DNA from: Candidatus Poribacteria bacterium
GTDB lineage: Bacteria > Poribacteria > WGA-4E > PCPOR2b
Assembly: GCA_965218095.1 (NCBI GenBank)
Contig: OZ244587.1
Span: 224,001 to 288,000, forward strand
Direction: 5' to 3'
DNA: 64,000 nucleotides
A program made the translations under genes and the position numbers. This document shows, piece by piece, positions 5,933-47,700 of this stretch. Every line of letters begins with the position of its first letter. The first letter of the stretch is position 1. The notes beneath the pieces were generated by a model. It was not told where the DNA came from, did not search any database, and was given only the letters and a program-made list of their open reading frames with translations.

Positions 5933-6026
5933 ACAAGTGTCGCAAATTATAAGGTGCCAAAAATCGGGATTGAACAAGGATTTTGAGAATTCACTTGGTT
6001 TCTGATTAGCTCAAAGTGGTATAATA

Positions 6027-6955
6027 ACCCAAGTTGCTACCTATTGCAAATCCATGGGTTTTCCGTTAAAGTTGAGGTGTTCAACCATAACCTCAATAAC
6101 CTCAAAGGAGAAACCCATGGACATCCAAATTGTAACCGTTTTCTATCTGTGTGACAAGCTCTTAGAAGCATTCAACCCAAAACTCAATCCACAAACTCAG
6201 ATGTCTGACGCCGAAGTTATGACCACCGCTGTCGTTGCTGCTCTCTTTTTCGATGCCAACTTCCAAACGGCTCGCGATTTTCTTCAAACTCATGGCTATA
6301 TACCAAATATGCTCTCAAAGAGTCGATTCAATCGACAACTTCATCGAATGAAACCGATGTTCATTACACTGTTCAAAATCTTGGCACAAAGCTTTGTGCA
6401 ACTCAATCAACAGAAGTTGTATGCGCTGGATACTGTGACAATATTCGCATTCATCGGTCAAAAACCCACACAGATGAGGCATTTCGAGGCTATCAAGCGT
6501 CCAAACATCGGTATTTCTACGGCTTGAAGGTTCATCTGCTGGTGACCGCCGCCCAACACCCCGTTGAATTTTTTGTGACCCCAGCGAGCACAGGAGACGT
6601 CGAAGGCTTACAGTGGTTTGACTTCGACTTGCCACCGGGCAGCCGGGTCTACGGCGACAAAGCGTACAATAACTATGAGATAGAAGATATTGTTGCAGCA
6701 GTTGAAGTGGAATTGAAGCCAATACGCAAGAAGCATTCAAAACGAGCATATCCGCCATGGGAGACCTATTTGGCTAATTACTATCGTAAGTCTGTTGAGA
6801 CGGCTGGAAGTTTGATTGAGAGACTGCTTCCGCGTTGTATCCATGCGGTGACGCGACAGGGATTTGAATTGAAAGTGGTCTTGTTTGTACTGGCTAGTAG
6901 TATCAATCAGCTCTGAGTTCACTCACATATTCGATGAATAGGTGGCAACTTGAGT
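6027..6955 (+). mobile_element. IS982-family element with frameshifted transposase
   Basis: TIRs ACCCAAGTTGCTACCTA / TAGGTGGCAACTTGAGT; 7-bp TSD TATAATA (6020-6026, 6956-6962); motifs MSDAEVMT, SKSRFNR, YGDKAY, IHAVTRQGFELKV. Confidence 0.93.
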
Positions 6956-6962
6956 TATAATA

Positions 6963-30843: not shown

Positions 30844-33800
30844 ATGAAACTCAACAGCAAGTTATTACTCACCATCATCGGTATCCTTTCCATCATCATT
30901 ATTGGTGGAGGGATTTACATCGCAACGCAGAACAAAACAACAACCCATTCAGCCACACCATTCAGAGCATCCAAAAGCCAGGCGGTCACACCCGCCAAAG
31001 GTGAAACGCTTAACTTCTCCGTGAAGTCGTTTTCGCCGCGAGGCAGAGTCTCCCAACGGCAAAATTTCACCATTACCTTTTCTCGGCCGATTGCCGATGT
31101 GTCGTTGATTAACACTGAATTGGACAGTTCACCCGTCACATTCACGCCGCAGATTCGCGGCAGATTTCGGTGGATTGGACAAGACCAGATCCGTTTCTTC
31201 CCAGAAGTTCCACTTTCTCCCTCCACAGAATATACCGCTGAAATCCTTCCGGAGATTAGCCCAGACCCACAACATTACAGGCTTACGGGCAAACGTGACC
31301 TTACCTTTTTCACCGAGCGTTTTTACGTCAAAAGCGCAAGACTCTCGTTTGAATTCAACACGCCAAAAAAGAGGCGGGCGAAGATCCTTGGGACGGTTGA
31401 TTTCAACTATGCGGTCAATCCTGCTGACTTGAAGGAATACCTCACCATTGCTTATGAAGGCGGCACGGAGATTCCGTGCCAAATCAAAACCACCGGTTCT
31501 AATTCGATTATCCGGTTGGAAACCGGAGAGGTCGCGCGAGGCGACAACGATCGGCGCATTCGGTTGCAAATCAAAAAAGACCTCAAGGGGGTCAACTGTC
31601 AACTTGGTCTTGAGAAGGATTACACCTCTCCGATTATCTTGAAAGGAAAAGGAAACCTGTACGTTCATAATGCGAACACGAGGCGCGGAGGCAGTGGAAG
31701 CTATATTCGTCTCTACCTCAGCACCCCTGTTGACTCAGAGGCGGCGAAGCCATATCTGACGATTGAGCCGGAAATCGATTATCAACTCACGGCAAACTAT
31801 CGCTACCTCAACATCCACGCTGATTTTAAGCCCGGCAATCGCTACACTGTAACTGTCAAGCAGGGCTTGCGGTCAGAGGATGATGCCGTCTTCAGACAGG
31901 ATTTTCTCGCACGTTTACCATCCCGGACCTTGAGCCGAGTCTCCGCTTTGTTGGCGATGGGTTCTTCCTCCCGAGAGATGGTGCCCTCAACCTCGGTTTG
32001 GGAACAACTAACGTCGACCACGTCAAGCTCGAAATCGAGAGAGTCGCCGCGGATAATCTAGTCTACCTCCTGACAAGTCAGAATTGGGACGAATGGACGG
32101 GGGAAGCGTTCATGGTTCGAGAGGAGCTCCAGATTGACCTAGTGCGAAATGAGGAGATTGCCATCTCGATTCCGCTGAAAGATTATCTCGCTGACGACCA
32201 GGCCGGCATTTTCCGGGGCACGGCTCGTGATGCAAACCATCGGTGGCGTCATGCGAACCTCCACTTGATGATTACTGACCTGGGCATCATGGCAAAAGAG
32301 ACGCGTGATGAACTATGGGTGTGGGTCAATTCGCTTTCGTCGCTCAAGCCGATCGCCAATGCAGAGGTCAAACTGATTACCCAGACCAACCACATCACCC
32401 ACAGTGGCACAACCGACGACGCCGGACTAGGTTCTGTTGACATTTCAACGGGGCCATATAAGAGTGGAGACAAAGCTGAGAAATCCAAAATAACGGACAG
32501 CTAGCTTCTCAAACCGAGAGAAGATACGACGATACCATTTTATCTTGTTGATGAAACATTCAACCCGATGTCTCTCTTTGTATAAGTGTTTGTCATACGT
32601 TCTTTGGTCAACACGATGACTTTTTGGCGGTATCACCGCAATCGCTCCATTCGCCTTGATAACCGCGATAAAAGCGTCCGAATCGTACCCCTTGTCTCCA
32701 ATCACATATTCACTGTTATATCCGATTATCAACCCGTCCGCCTCAGTTATGTCATGTCTCTGACCGGGTGTCAGATGAATTCTTAGGGGATTGCCTAGTC
32801 CGTTAACTGTGATGTGATTTTTTGTACTGAAACCGCCCCGAGACCGACCTAATGCTTGGTTTTCAGTGCCACCCTTTTTTTTAAGGCGCCCGCCGCACAC
32901 GGGAGATGGTACTGTCCACAATAAGCGACTCGATATCGGGGTCAGAGGCGAAGTGGTGGTGCATCTGTGTGAAGAACCTTTGTCGCACCATCGAGCAAAC
33001 CGTTTGTAGCGGGTGTTCCATTTGCCATAGGTGTCTGGTAGAAGTCTCCATTGAGCCCCACTACGAGTCACCCACAGAACCGCTTCGACGAAGCGGCGTG
33101 TAGCAGCTTCGTCGCCAACATAGATGGTGGGACAGCTTAGAAGAAACCGGTATATCTTATTCCATTGTTCATCAGGTAAGGTTATTGGCGTCATTCTTCT
33201 ATTATGCCACAACCTTATACTCAAATGTCAACAGAACCTAGTCAAGTTTGAAACCAAATCCAAGCCATTTCTCATCACCGCGTCAAAGGGGAATGATCTC
33301 GCATTCTTCCAGTTGAACCAGAGCCACATTTCAACGGCCGATTTCAATGTCACCGGCGCGCCGTATCCGGGCGAGGGTTACGATGCCTACATTTACCCTG
33401 ACCGCGGGGTCTATCGCCCCGGTGAGACCGCCAACCTCGTGAGCGTCGTGCGCGGAAAGAACAACGTCACACCGCCATCATTCCCGGTGCTGTTGCAGGT
33501 GCTGGGTCCTGATCAACGCATCATGCGGGAATTTCGCACCCAAATCAACGCGGAAGGCGCCGCCGAATTTAACATCTCGTTCCCGGTCTACGCGAAAACG
33601 GGCGGATACACGGCGAAGTTGCTCGTGGCGAAGGTTGAAATCGGACGGGCGACTTTCAACGTTGAGGAGTTCATGCCCGACCGAATCAAGGTGAAGGTTA
33701 AGACAGACAAACCGAGCTATGACCTCGCTGACGAAGCGACGATAAGCGTGGAAGTAGTGAACCTCTTCGGCCCACCGGCAGCAGGGCGAAAAGTAGTCGC

Positions 33801-42184: not shown

Positions 42185-42237
42185 TTGACGCCTTAACTTG
42201 TGTATAGTATATTAAAGGCATCTATACATTATGTTAG
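42185..42237 (+). promoter_or_regulatory. lexA promoter with candidate operator
   Basis: TTGACG -17 bp- TATATT; TGTATAG-N14-CTATACA inverted repeat straddling the -10 element. Confidence 0.55.
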
Positions 42238-42246
42238 GAGAAAATC

Positions 42247-42855
42247 GTGCGAAAACCATTGACGAAAAAACAGGAACGGATATTTGAATTCGTTCGGAAT
42301 CATTTGCAAGATACAGGCTATCCGCCAACCGTCCGTGAAATCGGGACATCGTTCGGAATTTCTGAGAAGGGCGCCCATGATCACCTGAATGCGATTGAAA
42401 AGAAAGGCTACATACGGCGCAGCCCCAAAAAACCGCGCGCCATCGAAATCTTGGAATTTGTGCCGAAAAAGCTGCCGCAAGCAGCAATTGAGGTGCCAAT
42501 CGTTGGACGAGTTGCCGCCGGTGAACCCCTATTGGCTTCCCAGAATATTGAGGGAACTTTACCCCTTCCGCGGGAGGTCGTCAAGGACGATACCTGTTTT
42601 GCTTTGCGTATCAAAGGGGAAAGTATGATTGAAGCGGGCATCTTTGAGCGCGATCTCGTAATCGTGAGATTACAAAATTACGCGGATGCCGGAGATATTG
42701 TTGTCGCGTTGCTCGGTGAGGAGGCAACGGTGAAGCGATTCTTCCGTGATGGTACGAAGATTCGCCTTCAACCTGAAAACGGCGCTATGTCTCCGATGAT
42801 TGTCGATGATGCGCAGATTTTGGGAAAGGTTGTTGGGCTTTTCCGCAAGATGTAG
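42247..42855 (+). CDS. lexA: SOS repressor LexA
   Basis: GYPPTVREI wHTH, VAAGEP cleavage site, GESM (Ser) and TVKR (Lys) dyad. Confidence 0.97.
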   Translation: MRKPLTKKQERIFEFVRNHLQDTGYPPTVREIGTSFGISEKGAHDHLNAIEKKGYIRRSPKKPRAIEILEFVPKKLPQAAIEVPIVGRVAAGEPLLASQNIEGTLPLPREVVKDDTCFALRIKGESMIEAGIFERDLVIVRLQNYADAGDIVVALLGEEATVKRFFRDGTKIRLQPENGAMSPMIVDDAQILGKVVGLFRKM

Positions 42856-42981
42856 GCACTGGAGCTCACTTCAATTTCTTGCTTATACCCGTTCTAAATT
42901 CAAATCGCGCATTCAAATGTCCCTCTGTGCCCCGCCGATAAATCTATGAGAAATCTGTTTTCAAGCAGCCTTTTGCACTAG

Positions 42982-43420
42982 CGGAGGGAGATCCTTCGGG
43001 CTTTTCGGGAAGTCCAACACACGACGACATCAGCCGTTACGCTTGAGGGGATAGAATCTGGGACAATTCGGATCCGGTTTGACAAGCGATTATCGAAAGC
43101 AGGTCTTGCAACGGATGAGAGAATAATTGTCAATCGAACGATGAATTTAGATGACATTCTTGCAACGATTGTCCATGAAGGGCGTCATCGTTTGGATCTG
43201 GCATCCGGCTTGATTCCACTGGCAAGTCAAGTGACGACTGAACAACGACCATGCTGCTGAATTTGCAAAGCTCAATAGCTTGACAAGGTCTGCTGCATTT
43301 GTTCATTCGCAGATGCATCCCGCCTAGTTGCTGGAGAGTCTCATTCAAACATCTTCTTATGGCTTTGGGCAGATTTCTGATGATGTATTCAGCCGGGTTC
43401 TCAAGGGGGTATGGAAATGA
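42982..43420 (+). pseudogene. Remnant of an HEXXH metallopeptidase-like (toxin-type) domain
   Basis: DDILATIVHEGRHRLD (HEGRH at 43174-43188); no start, frameshifts; final TGA overlaps the next ATG. Confidence 0.45.
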
Positions 43421-44639
43421 GAGCTAAGTATATAAAGGTGGCGAATGTGGCATTCGGTAAGGGGGATTTGGTCGTTCAACAGGAAGATTTTGTTGGAACA
43501 GATGCCTACGAGGATGGAAACGTTCCGGAGCCGGCGTATGAGCGATTCCTTAAATACTGCGACGAAAAAGGAGAAACTTTATGTGCGTTTCTGTGTAACA
43601 AGATGTAATGGGGGTTAGAATCCCCTAACGATAACTTGCAATTGTTAGCCTTACCTTAACTGCTTTGCTTGAAAAGGCAAAGTGGGAAGCAAAGGAAAAC
43701 GGCAAATGCCCGCGAGAGAATGTAGACCCTCAGACGGCATGTCAGGCTAAGAACGTCATGGCTAAAACGAAAGTTGAACTGATGTAAGCCTCGTTACTCC
43801 TGATTAGGTGAATCTACAAGAGGGAAACTGGAGTAGTCCCTTATAAACAGCCTGTAGACAAAATGTCAAAGTGCTTTGGACAACATGTATAAGTTATGTT
43901 GTCAATAGAAGGTATAGTATATTTTTATACCTTCACGCAAGTCATACAGCATCGGGGTAAAGTCAGAGCCTAAAACGTTCACGACGTACATCTTGTGAGA
44001 ACAGGAAAGTCCCTAAGTTTCTCACTGAGAAATATGGGAGAGGAGATTCGTTATACTTTATAAGTAAAGCCGAATCAGAGTCATGGCTTTTGAAGGATTC
44101 TGAAATAGGTTTACCACTACGGAGATAATCAGGGACTGCAAACCTGTCCACCGAGCGGATTAGACATCTCGTCTAAGAATCTATAGGAATCTTGATAAGG
44201 CGGTTGAAAATGATGATAATAACCTGTAAGGAAAGTCAAAAGGCAACTCAGCCTATCGTAACTTTTGAACCCTCAAACCTTTCATAGTTAGTCATCATTT
44301 ATGACTGGGCAAGCCGTGTGCGGTGAAAGTCGCACGCACGGTTTTGATGGGAGGAAAATTCCGCAAGGAATCTACCTATCCATACTAGAGGGACTGAAGA
44401 ACCTCAAGCGATTGGCAGATTACCTGAATTTGGATCTGACAGCGCAAGTTGCCCAACGTCCCGGCGATTATGCTATTCTGTTCTGTTTTCGTCTTATCTG
44501 TGCTCAGACTATGGGATTTGCTTGGAGAACCACACACCTCGCCTTGAGAAGGGTACACTCCGCTGCCTTATTTTTGCTGCTAGCCTTGAAACGGTGCAAC
44601 CACCGCTTTGGGATGTCAGGTGGCAATTGGTTGACATGA
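43411..44639 (+). CDS. Small hypothetical protein interrupted by a group II intron (exons 43411-43582 and 44386-44639; 141 aa spliced)
   Basis: Exon join TTA T|TA GAG gives ...YCDEKGETLLEGLKNLKRLADYLNLDL in frame; the C-terminal tail may not be native. Confidence 0.6.
43583..44385 (+). ncRNA. ORF-less group II intron
   Basis: 5' GTGCG; domain V AAGCCGTGTGCGGTGAAAGTCGCACGCACGGTTT (44311-44344); domain VI with bulged A 8 nt from the 3' AC; no RT ORF inside. Confidence 0.88.
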
Positions 44640-44724
44640 GCTACCATAAAAAAAGAATCCGTCCCCTCCAGAAAAAGTGAAGGGGTTGAAACGGGCGGGG
44701 AAGTTAGGACATAGAAACGCACAA

Positions 44725-47700
44725 ATGGAAACGCCAGAAAAGTTGAGATTTTGCCGTATTATCTTTCTCACCCTTTCTACATTTCTCCGGTCTTCGACCG
44801 AGAGTCCGAAACCTTCCCTCCTTCCATTCTTGCTTTCTTTCCTCCTTTCCTTCTTCATTCCCACTTTGCTTGATGCTTTACCTGAGTTCTGGACGGCGGA
44901 ACACCGCTATCTCTTGGTTCCGCTCAATCAAATGCGCCGGCAATCTGTGCAAGGGGCTCGGAGATTTTCGTTGCCTGGAGCGATAACCGACTGGGCAGGT
45001 GGGAAATCTTCTTTCGATATAGCCCTGATGGTGGGCTGACGTGGCAGCCGGAAGAACGTGTCACAACGACTCGCACGGATTCCGTCCAACCGGCGATTGC
45101 CTGCGATCAGGAGCAGATCCATCTTGTGTGGCAGAGCCTGCCCCGAGCTATCGGGGAACGCAGCGCAACGCAAACGCAAATCGGCTACAGTTCCTGGGAG
45201 GGCGTGGCTTGGAGCCCAACCCAGATTTTATCGCAACGGGGTATCTCCACCCGTCGCCCGAAGATTGCAACGACAAAGATCTTTCCCGGCGGGTTGGTTT
45301 ACGTTGTCTGGGAAGGTCAGCCGGACAATGGGCCGGGAGTAACAGCCTATCTCACACGCAACAGCGATGGCGGCCGAACATGTTCAAACCCACAGCCGAT
45401 TGTGTCGGAGGACTGGGATACGCGCGAACCGGATATCACGGGCGGGGTTCGCGCCGCTTATGTCACATGGCAGGACGGACGAGAGGCGACTTCGCAGATC
45501 TATGTCAAACGTTGGGATGAAGTGACGGTCAGCGCGGATTTTCGCCTTGCAGCAGTCGGGAATTGTCGGCGCCCATCGATTGCTGTTTTAGAGCCACAAG
45601 TATTCATGGCGTGGGAATGCAGCCTGAGTGAAACCGCGCCGGTGAACATCTTCGCGTCGGAAAGCAGGAATCGGGCGGAAACGTGGGGCCCCGCTGAACA
45701 AATTTCGTTTAATACAGCGGAATCAATCGTGCCACAAATCCTTGTGCATCGAGATGATGCGTGGGTACTCTGGCAGGACGGGGAGTCTGGCGTCCGGGAG
45801 GTTCACTTCGCACAACACCTGCAAAGCGCCTGGACACCCATAGCGCAATTCACTGTCGACGGAAGCCGACAATCCCATCCACCTAGTTTGGGTAGAGCTC
45901 ACAGATACAGCGCAATCAACCATATTTTATACCCAACGTGATACAATACCTCCCGGACGTCCCGCTCAATCGGTCCATCTTGACTTTGACTTATCTTCTG
46001 GCTTTGACAACGATTCACGTCTTACCTTCTCCTGGGAAGCCTCTACAATCCTCCCCTCTCCGTTTCAGGGAGTGGCCGGGGGAGAGGTCCGGTACCATGT
46101 TTTTGCGTCGATCGATGGCGGCGCGTTGACCGAAATTGGTTCGACGAATGACACGACCTTTACGTTCAACAGTGAGGATAACAAATCTTATCGCGTCGTG
46201 ATTCAAGCCGCTGATTCAGTCGGCAACCGGAGTGAATTCTCTAAACCGTCGGCGCCCGTATTCGTTGATCGGTCACCGCTAGACCTCGAAATTCATCTTC
46301 CTACCTCAAACATCGTAATCACGCGTCCCATTCCTGTGATCGCGACCTGTCTTGATACCAATCTGGTTGAATGCCGCCTTCAGTTTGGAGCAACGCGCAC
46401 ACTGAGCACTTGGACGTTGCTGGGCGAACCCATCCGTATTCCATTTCAAAGGGAATGTCTAATCGTGTGGAATACTAGCAACCTGGATGGCATTTATACG
46501 CTCGCGCTGACCGCAATTGATGAGGCTGGCAATCGTGTGACAACGCAAACGCCGCTCGTTATCGATAACACGCCGCCATTATCGATTGCGGGTGGGATGC
46601 AGACATCACTTCTGACCGATGAAAACCTGGAGGTTTCTTTCCGCACTCCTGTCTGGTCGCCCGATGGGGGTAAGATCGCTTTTTCCAGTAATGAAGGGGG
46701 CGCTAAAGACATCTGGTTACTAGAGCTTCCGTGACAATACACGCCATCGCCTCACCCACGACGCCGCAATCGACTTGAATCCCGCGTGGCATCCAGATTC
46801 GGATCGGCTTGCCTTTCAATCACAACGAAACGGTCGGTGGGAGATTTGGACTGTCCGATCTGATGGCAGTGATCACCACCCCTTGATTACCGTGGACAAC
46901 ACCGACAATCGTCCATCCGCGAATATCAATTTCGAGACGCCCACATGGTCACCTACAGGAGTGCAACTCGCCTTCGCCGCAGACCTTGATGGAGATTTGG
47001 AGATCTGGGCGGTGCAGAATGCTGATGATGTTTTGTCCGGCACAGTTTCCGATCTCTTCCAATTGACCCGAAACACCGCTCAAGACCTCCACCCAACATG
47101 GGCGCCTGATGGAACACAGTTAGTGTTTCAATCAGTCCGCACGGGAAATTGGGAGCTCTGGCAAATTAACATTGACGGTTCGGATGAAAAACGGGTATAT
47201 CAGAACTTCGCCAACGAAACGCTTCCGCGGTGGTCTCCCAATGGGAAGTTGCTGCTCTTTCTCTCCGATCAGTTGGGGCGCACGCCAGCCGCCTTCATTA
47301 TCAACCTGCGGGATGGAAGCCTCCCAACTCAGATTTCCCCAATCGGCGTTCCGACTGATAGTGTTGATTGGTCCCCCGATGGACGGGAAATCATCTATCA
47401 ATCCGGCGATCGGTTGCATCGGCTGCCGCTCGAATTTCCTGCGCCGCCGATTGAGGCGATGATTACCCATCCTTATACAGGCGAGCAATTGAGCGGCAGA
47501 GTCGATCTCTTTGGACTTGCTCGTGGCACACTGTTTCAGGAATACCGCTTAGAGTATGCGTCAGTTTATGCGGGCGAGGCAAGCATCGCCCCGCCGACGT
47601 AGCATCGGATTGGTGGGCGATAACCACCCCGGTAACGCAGATTGAAAATCCCGATTTTATTGGGAAGGGTTTTCTCGGACGGTGGGATACACAGCAGTTG

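Follow-up and report, generated by a model that had tools for sequence, protein, structure and literature searches.

We analysed a 64,000-nucleotide (nt) stretch of the genome of a Candidatus Poribacteria bacterium (assembly GCA_965218095.1, contig OZ244587.1, positions 224,001 to 288,000 of the forward strand; hereafter the window, in whose numbering all coordinates are given unless marked as genome positions) and found that positions 43583-44385 of the + strand are a genuine group II intron of the IIB type, 803 nt long and without an open reading frame (ORF), lying inside a small gene. By comparison with an uninterrupted homolog the host gene is shown to be frameshifted, and the assembly sequence shows no intact maturase ORF in this genome. 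We therefore regard the intron as probably a stranded relic that no longer moves and lies in a pseudogene, and not as a functioning gene switch.

The ends and the composition of the element agree with what an earlier note, made from the sequence alone, had described. The first bases are GTGCG and the last are AC (44384-85), the G+C content is 0.40-0.42 against 0.46-0.58 in the flanks, and no ORF of at least 80 codons lies within 43583-44385 on the intron's own strand. A scan with Rfam models gave one gathering-level match in the 64-kb window, the group II model RF00029, which covers 44309-44385 (+) from model position 1 to 77 of 77 with 65 bits (E 1.6e-10, gathering score 40) and ends exactly at 44385. 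Its alignment reproduces to the base the 34-nt domain V and the domain VI with an A at -8 that had been read by eye (Table 1). In a more permissive scan, the Rfam D1-D4 model RF02012 matched 43627-43769 with 26.8 bits, under its gathering score of 34; because the D1-D4 models matched below threshold only, no subclass was named from Rfam. The description of a compact, non-autonomous intron is thus supported, and the IIB type is indicated by the exon pairings given below.

Host gene and its frameshift

Joining 43582 to 44386 gives an open frame of 141 codons from the ATG at 43411, or of 139 codons from the likelier start at 43417. A phmmer search with exon 1 against 1.84 billion representative proteins (E<=0.001) returned two matches. 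One is the ORF called in this genome itself; the other is P0005, a 169-aa protein encoded without interruption on a metagenome contig of 2.4 kb and annotated as 'hypothetical protein'. Residues 3-55 of exon 1 align with P0005 residues 1-53 at 53% identity, P0005 residues 59-89 align with exon 2 read on in the frame of exon 1 (E 5e-11), and the junction 43582|44386 is bridged by exactly 5 residues on each side. Since P0005 is colinear over this junction, the intron boundaries are confirmed and, at the level of sequence comparison, so is the assignment of the exons to one small, real gene. The proposal that excision rejoins a single gene was therefore right, and the two exons do not come from different genes, one homolog spanning both.

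The reading frame of exon 2 tells a different story further downstream. For P0005 residues 84-163 the matching frame of exon 2 is another one (46% identity, E 5e-22), and a tandem 5-nt duplication sits 92-101 nt inside the exon. When the intron and one 5-nt unit are removed, a single 151-codon frame is obtained that matches P0005 residues 1-163 in one stretch (48.5% identity, E 1e-54); this frame is obtained only when one unit is left out. As it stands, the spliced DNA encodes 139 residues with a stop at codon 140, the last ~54 of them out of frame, and the last ~54 residues of the 141-aa ORF have no match to P0005. Because the frameshift lies in exon 2, even a perfectly spliced mRNA would yield these ~54 out-of-frame residues. 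Two of the three + frames are open across 44386-44640, which explains why a continuous 141-aa ORF had been noticed: the open frame exists, but its tail past ~44480 is out of the true frame as judged by P0005. The further claim that the host gene is splicing-dependent does not survive, the gene being frameshifted in any case.

Contigs from public runs (three sponge-metatranscriptome runs and one DNA run) were placed on 42200-45200. DNA and RNA contigs over 44357-45200, 44365-44570 and 44358-44663 have 0 differences and 0 gaps to the window. The contigs of the independent RNA study differ from the window at two intron positions yet match the duplication, which argues that it is not a one-off assembly slip. 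No contig of the three RNA runs joins 43582 to 44386, a result to be read with the limit that contigs cannot show absence. The listed contig joints (e.g. 43794 to 43939) have short sides of 20-30 nt, and we attribute them to contigs derived from paralogous copies of the intron. Exon 1 (43412-43512) has no RNA cover, and contig depth is 7-14 in the intron versus 2-5 in the flanks; since contig depth cannot rank parts, nothing was drawn from this difference. The two differing positions are 44193 and 44251 in domain IV, which read G and A in the three RNA runs and T and G in the window and the DNA run; we take this as a strain difference rather than editing.

Beyond P0005 the host gene has left few traces. 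Pfam gave nothing for exon 1, exon 2 or P0005, a word-index protein search gave nothing for exon 1 (among longer proteins) and just the genome's own 112-aa ORF call for exon 2, and a scan of metagenome contigs for the locus of P0005 found none. Six-frame searches for the exons matched the own genome (G000) alone, with no match in 60 relatives or in a further 175 genomes of the phylum; the host gene thus shows no sign of being under selection. The intron-less form of the gene is represented by this one metagenome protein, and none was found among the 60 relatives.

Copies of the intron and the maturase gene

The genome is 6.35 Mb long, on one contig, with a marker completeness of 93.9%. As had been suggested, the 803 nt were compared with it by BLAST, and further copies were found (38 matching pieces). 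Domain V/VI matches above the Rfam cut-off number 23, recognisable 5' ends about 16, and related copies about 16-20. The 5' end is common to all copies and the 3' end motif to all but one: GTGCG and AC recur in 10 other copies, one copy has GTGTG, and the 3' end of copy R was read differently. Five copies (A, B, J, O and R, of which A is the window copy) are uninterrupted and ORF-less, with lengths of 715-803 nt. Copy C (L141, genome 598220-600671) has 2452 nt and carries a reverse-transcriptase (RT)/maturase ORF, while copy F holds merely remnants of one.

The ORF of copy C is broken. In the assembly sequence it is split over two frames and has an in-frame stop near genome position 599411; the NCBIfam group II RT/maturase model TIGR04416 matches it in two parts, as model positions 10-147 and 180-353. 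The whole genome has one GIIM match and three RVT_1 matches, and two of the latter are pieces of this one ORF, one of them containing the TGA. The earlier note had proposed to look for an RT-encoding parent; the one RT-encoding copy of the family in this genome is C. The suggestion of a maturase acting in trans is not supported, since the sole GIIM gene has an in-frame stop and a frameshift. The closest solved relative of the copy C protein is PDB 6ME0 chain C (E 2.5e-57), which is the structure of the Thermosynechococcus elongatus IIB1 intron Th.e.I3 (PMC8643678). Identity of the family protein to any relative is ~41% at best among species-representative genomes. The third RVT_1 match is a 526-codon RT at genome 1094679-1096259 with a YIDD-type motif and no maturase domain or GIIM, and may be of defence type.

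Of 28 other genomes in this bacterial family, 25 contain relatives of the intron. Across the bacterial family domain V matches far outnumber maturase matches: the ratio per genome is 23/1 here and 16/2, 11/1, 9/0, 22/4, 27/3, 8/0 and 3/1 in others. Related maturase ORFs of 583-598 codons were found in G014, G024 and G001.

Many of the sibling copies are damaged. Copies D and U contain the same ~935-bp insertion element, which has >30 copies in the genome, copy N contains a ~840-bp IS4/5-family element (DUF4096 + DDE_Tnp_1) with at least 100 matches in the genome, and copies T and I have a ~1.25-kb element inside. The subfamily of copy A comprises D, M and N, which with A are 86-92% identical in domain I (differing by 8-14%), and U, which is 75-76% identical to them (~24% different). 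D, N and U hold insertion sequences and M is truncated beside one, so all but A are damaged. The only pair in the genome with 100% identity is I and J, whose common flanks mark it as a segmental duplication; L and P, of another subfamily, form a 99% pair. No near-identical pair with different flanks was found inside the subfamily of A, and nothing in these comparisons points to its recent movement.

Some further introns were noted. Loci L147 and L148 (genome 3601485-3602927 and 4514987-4516393), each ~1.4 kb, have a domain IV with short non-RT sequence, in which ribosome-binding-site-like motifs and small open frames on both strands were seen by eye. The related genome G017 has seven copies (L159-L165) of an ORF-less intron that are 99.8-100% identical over ~830 nt, with conserved short flanks, which suggests recent mobility of an ORF-less intron there; these introns belong to a different intron family and were left out of the two-loop comparison below.

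The distance from lexA to the homolog of the gene starting at 44868 is 2013 nt here versus 373 nt in G005 and 268 nt in G001, and the extra ~2 kb hold a DUF6782-like fragment, the host gene and the intron. The match of Pfam DUF6782 to the fragment (E 1.2e-4, 21.9 bits) is below the cut-off of 27. This insert is an accessory, decaying patch. Elsewhere in the window, 32427-33247 (-) and 6020-6959 are copies of two high-copy insertion sequences. One is the ~840-bp IS4/5-family element and the other a relative of the ~935-bp element, the same two types that interrupt or adjoin the sibling introns N, D, U and M.

Ribozyme core and exon recognition

The first ~500 nt of 20 family members were aligned, 11 of them belonging to this genome and the other 9 to six related ones. 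The consensus of domains I-III has 104 pairs in 18 helices, and 75 of the 104 pairs are changed on both sides among the 20 members, including all 17 pairs of the two basal helices of domain I (7 + 10). Standard pairs fill 96.1% of the cells versus 34.5-43.2% after a shift of the 3' partners by 1-3 columns, and on none of five measures did any of 500 shuffles match the observed value. Copy A retains 116 of the 123 pairs of an independently computed consensus, within a family range of 106-121. Domains I, II and III are thus all present and covarying, so the intron call holds on the point on which the earlier note had made it depend, a foldable domain I-III. By these comparative criteria the ribozyme core (domains I-III, V and VI) is intact.

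Domain IV had been represented by a tiny hairpin at 44290-44306, proposed as the only candidate. The minimum-energy fold of 44040-44385 (z -3.25) instead closes a domain of 226 nt (Table 1), whose closing stem is compensated, being GTCAT/ATGAC in copy A and GTCAA/TTGAC in B and O (four copies compared). With the family's protein as query, tblastn at E<=1 found no remnant of an intron-encoded protein in domain IV of copy A. As to a protein-binding stem (DIVa) that might be shared with the ORF-containing relative, one sequence match alone was seen between domain IV of copy A and copy C, of 30 nt at 87%.

Table 1. Coordinates of the intron, its structural elements and the surrounding features in the window.
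Feature	Position	Strand	Description
Lineage-specific ~2-kb insert	42856..44867	+	between lexA (42247-42855) and conserved downstream gene
Stop-bounded metallopeptidase-like fragment	42982..43257	+	92-codon stop-to-stop frame with HExxH-like motif, upstream of host gene
Exon 1	43417..43582	+	55 codons + 1 base; P0005 match
IBS2	43569-73	+	AGGAG, complementary to EBS2
IBS1	within 43575-82	+	complementary to loop of Id3 hairpin 1
ORF-less group IIB intron	43583..44385	+	803 nt
Domain I	43583..44009	+	5' GUGCG; basal stems 43586-94/44001-09 and 43598-607/43987-96
EBS2	43797..43801	+	CTCCT, pairs with AGGAG 43569-73, 5 bp
Id3 hairpin 1	43879..43903	+	candidate EBS1 of copy A; 8-bp stem, 9-nt loop 43887-95
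Id3 hairpin 2	43910..43932	+	loop 43917-25; no match to exon of copy A
Coordination loop	43959..43961	+	EBS3 A 43960 pairs with IBS3 T 44386
Domain II	44010..44039	+	helices 16 and 17; distal stem with 5/6 pairs compensated
Domain III	44045..44076	+	helix 18; 5/5 pairs compensated
Domain IV	44080..44305	+	ORF-less remnant, 226 nt; minimum-energy fold, closing pairs 44080-84/44301-05
Domain V	44311..44344	+	AGC 44312-14, GAAA loop 44325-28; RF00029 alignment
Domain VI	44348..44382	+	bulged branch-point candidate A 44378, -8 from 3' end; RF00029 alignment
Exon 2	44386..44680	+	exon 1 frame to ~44481; true continuation in other frame, stop 44678-80
Tandem 5-nt duplication (frameshift)	44477..44486	+	two identical units

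The exon-binding sites (EBS) and their targets, the intron-binding sites (IBS), were tested in 21 introns by scoring the loops against their own exons, with the loops against every other intron's exons as control. EBS2 is seated in an internal loop (43794-43803) between the stems 43788-93/43953-58 and 43804-09/43850-55, and an EBS2/IBS2 score of at least 5 was reached with the own exon by 16 of 21 introns versus 46 of 420 swapped combinations. EBS3 is the variable base (column 392 of alignment A2) in the otherwise conserved motif 43953-43966; its pair with IBS3 forms with the own exon in 19 of 21 introns versus 200 of 420 foreign combinations. Pairing of EBS3 with the first base of exon 2 is a hallmark of IIB introns, and by this sequence test it is found here.

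For EBS1 the earlier note had offered GTAAAGT near 43956. This motif is common to 20 members regardless of the exon, is partly paired within domain Id in the consensus fold, and has one variable base, which acts as EBS3; it is therefore not EBS1. The exon-pairing check thus supported EBS2 and EBS3, rejected the proposed EBS1 site, and pointed to 43879-43903 as the candidate EBS1. There, ATAAG (43889-93) faces TTTAT (43578-82) with 5 contiguous base pairs (bp) including one G-U, whereas about 6 bp up to the 5' splice site are expected for EBS1-IBS1 in IIB introns. The resulting score of 4.5 is reached by 2.8% of 674 foreign loop-exon combinations; a score of at least 5.5 is reached by 14 of 21 family members and by 1.5% of controls.

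A related intron in genome G022 bears on this short helix. It lies at L158:1542-2287, has 746 nt, is ORF-less, and splits in frame a 318-codon ORF (191 codons upstream and 126 downstream); three maturase matches were found in that genome. Its target is nearly identical to that of A, with few positions differing, and the homologous loop forms 7 anchored bp (GTAAAGT). Set against these 7 bp, the 5 bp of A read as the remainder of a once-perfect match, and its EBS1 looks like a decayed version of one. The idea that the two introns sit in homologous host genes was considered and rejected, since tblastn of P0005 and the exons gave nothing below E 0.3 and the 318-codon ORF is unrelated.

Many copies have an EBS2 complementary to motifs of the AGGAG type that resemble Shine-Dalgarno sequences. 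Copies F, B, C and U, and one intron of G021 (L126), also have an ATG at the splice junction, across it or no more than 3 nt away. The downstream open frames in this genome have just 17-72 codons, and it is not claimed that the family targets ribosome-binding sites, with splicing rebuilding the spacing between the Shine-Dalgarno motif and the start.

Comparison of the Id3 regions (window 43879-43932, L137-L148, L127, L128, L132 and L150) brought out a further feature. Among the 20 aligned introns, 12 including copy A have two tandem hairpins in Id3, mostly with loops of 9 nt, and 8 have one. Hairpin 1 has stems of 7-9 bp beneath a 9-nt loop in 9 of the 12 two-hairpin introns, with differing stem sequences, and all 6 pairs of the hairpin 2 helix are changed on both sides. 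IBS1, the last 6-7 bases of the exon, matches loop 1 in C, J, D, P and the G022 intron (scores 5.5-7) and weakly in A, but loop 2 in B, F, T, U and L (scores 6-6.5) and in the second G022 copy (5.5). L and P share 99% identity in domain I and do not differ in their loops, yet the site of L fits loop 2 and the unrelated site of P fits loop 1. In the close group of C, J and T, whose hairpins are clearly homologous, C and J pair through loop 1 and T through loop 2. The simplest reading of these sequence complementarities is that either loop can serve as EBS1, so that one ribozyme would have two target specificities; we put the chances for and against it as about equal. Word searches of the open-access literature found no description of tandem EBS1 hairpins, which is weak evidence of novelty; the 'EBS1a/b' of PMC3753933 are mutant names.

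A probable stranded relic and its relation to known introns

We propose the following course of events, in which the mode of insertion, the present inactivity and the order are what we infer. The intron would have entered the sense strand of a small lineage-specific gene through RNA-guided reverse splicing, at a site marked by three pairings: AGGAG with EBS2 CTCCT, the end of exon 1 with the hairpin 1 loop of Id3, and the first base of exon 2 with the EBS3 A. The related G022 intron, at a near-identical target in an unrelated ORF, was counted in favour of insertion by base pairing. Exact splicing would have rejoined the gene, colinear with its intron-less homolog. After insertion the means of moving would have been lost with the disruption of the only cognate RT/maturase gene, the EBS1-IBS1 pairing would have weakened, and the host gene would later have been frameshifted by the 5-nt duplication, while other members of the subfamily were cut or truncated by insertion sequences. 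Since the core is as well kept as that of its relatives, the intron may splice if given a maturase, or perhaps alone; nothing in the genome now depends on its splicing.

Several points weigh against this proposal. By every comparative measure the core is as well kept as in the relatives, some IIB introns self-splice, and nothing in the sequence shows that this RNA fails to splice. The two breaks of the maturase gene (one stop and one frameshift) were seen only in the assembly. As this is one contig with a completeness of 93.9%, an intact maturase could be present on a plasmid or on another replicon missing from it. An EBS1-IBS1 helix of 5 bp, or of 7 bp with one bulged U, may be sufficient for splicing. 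The frameshifted 139-aa product has ~85 native residues and could retain function, and the true frame was deduced from a single, though strong, comparison with the one homolog known for the host protein.

The alternative that holds up best is that the host gene is dead but the intron RNA is still active, by itself, with a host factor, or with a maturase from an unassembled replicon or from read-through of the damaged gene. This agrees with the 116 of 123 consensus pairs kept, with the 65 bits of domains V/VI and with the robust self-splicing reported for the Clostridium tetani intron C.te.I1, which is ORF-less in a maturase-free genome (PMC4424553). In relatives, too, ORF-less copies far outnumber maturase matches, one genome having 8 domain V matches and no GIIM, and the seven near-identical copies of the unrelated intron in G017 indicate that ORF-less introns do move in this bacterial family. 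Yet the subfamily of A is 8-14% (A, D, M, N) or ~24% (U) divergent and has no near-identical pair with different flanks, and EBS1 is degraded to 5 bp versus 7 in the G022 relative; the three RNA runs contain no exon-joining contig, which is not evidence of absence. On balance, we consider continued activity of the RNA unlikely.

It is more doubtful still, and in our judgement improbable, that the intron is fully functional, self-spliced or spliced in trans, with an intact 141-aa protein depending on its removal. Such an intron would have the intact core and the exact boundaries observed, an in-frame junction colinear with P0005, and an open frame reaching 44639. But past ~44481 P0005 fits another frame (E 5e-22) and the last ~54 residues stay unmatched, a second + frame is equally open there, the genome lacks an intact maturase ORF, and homologs of the exons are absent from the 60 relatives and the 175 other genomes of the phylum. 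That the stretch is no intron, just a chance domain-V-like hairpin in an AT-rich spacer between unrelated ORFs, has the absence of an ORF in its favour and nothing more, and is refuted by the Rfam E-value of 1.6e-10, a family of copies sharing both ends exactly, covariation in 18 helices and a homolog that spans both exons. The relic in a pseudogene is thus the reading that we retain.

Among described systems, the TeI3-type IIB1 introns of T. elongatus (Mohr et al. 2010) are close in several respects and are the best case of bacterial ORF-less introns found together with related copies that have an ORF. They too occur in many copies per genome, most of them ORF-less, recognise their targets in the IIB manner via EBS1, EBS2 and EBS3 with families differing in EBS sequence, and are inserted mostly outside conserved genes (PMC2882425), and the best solved relative of the protein of our family is 6ME0 chain C. 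In T. elongatus 25 introns are intact, 17 ORF-less and 8 with an ORF, and those without one are spliced and mobilised by 'driver' proteins (PMC2882425). Here, in contrast, the only such ORF is broken, whereas 8 of the 25 intact introns keep theirs there; in addition, the two EBS1-type Id3 hairpins of the present family are not met in the excerpts of PMC2882425.

C.te.I1 offers a second comparison. A 2015 review calls ORF-less introns rare in bacteria and C.te.I1 the sole case without an intron protein gene in the genome (PMC4424553). Like the window intron, it is ORF-less, lies within a protein-coding gene, and has no usable intron-encoded protein in its genome (PMC4424553). Unlike it, C.te.I1 is reported to self-splice and to yield alternative functional fusion proteins (PMC4424553, PMC3919590, PMC4024640), while here the host is frameshifted, and the genome still has a cognate maturase gene, though a damaged one, along with about 20 siblings of the intron. 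Given the frameshift in the host gene sequence, a need for splicing of the C.te.I1 type is unlikely.

Organellar ORF-less group II introns have likewise lost the domain IV ORF, are confined to splicing and need factors in trans (PMC4424553). They differ in having housekeeping genes as hosts and in being maintained by selection, with host factors dedicated to them (PMC4424553), whereas the present intron occupies an orphan, frameshifted gene in an accessory island rich in insertion sequences.

In conclusion, ORF-less bacterial group II introns are already known, and what is unusual here is that the genome's only maturase gene is damaged. The locus provides a natural case in which the colinearity of an intron-less homolog fixes both splice sites to the base. 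As the genome has 23 domain V/VI matches but no maturase ORF left intact, it would be informative to know if any of its intron RNAs still splices. If either Id3 loop can indeed serve as EBS1, the family would be able to spread to other targets without prior mutation of EBS1, which would give a retroelement a new means of diversifying its targets and would offer a natural starting point for gene-targeting introns with two targets.

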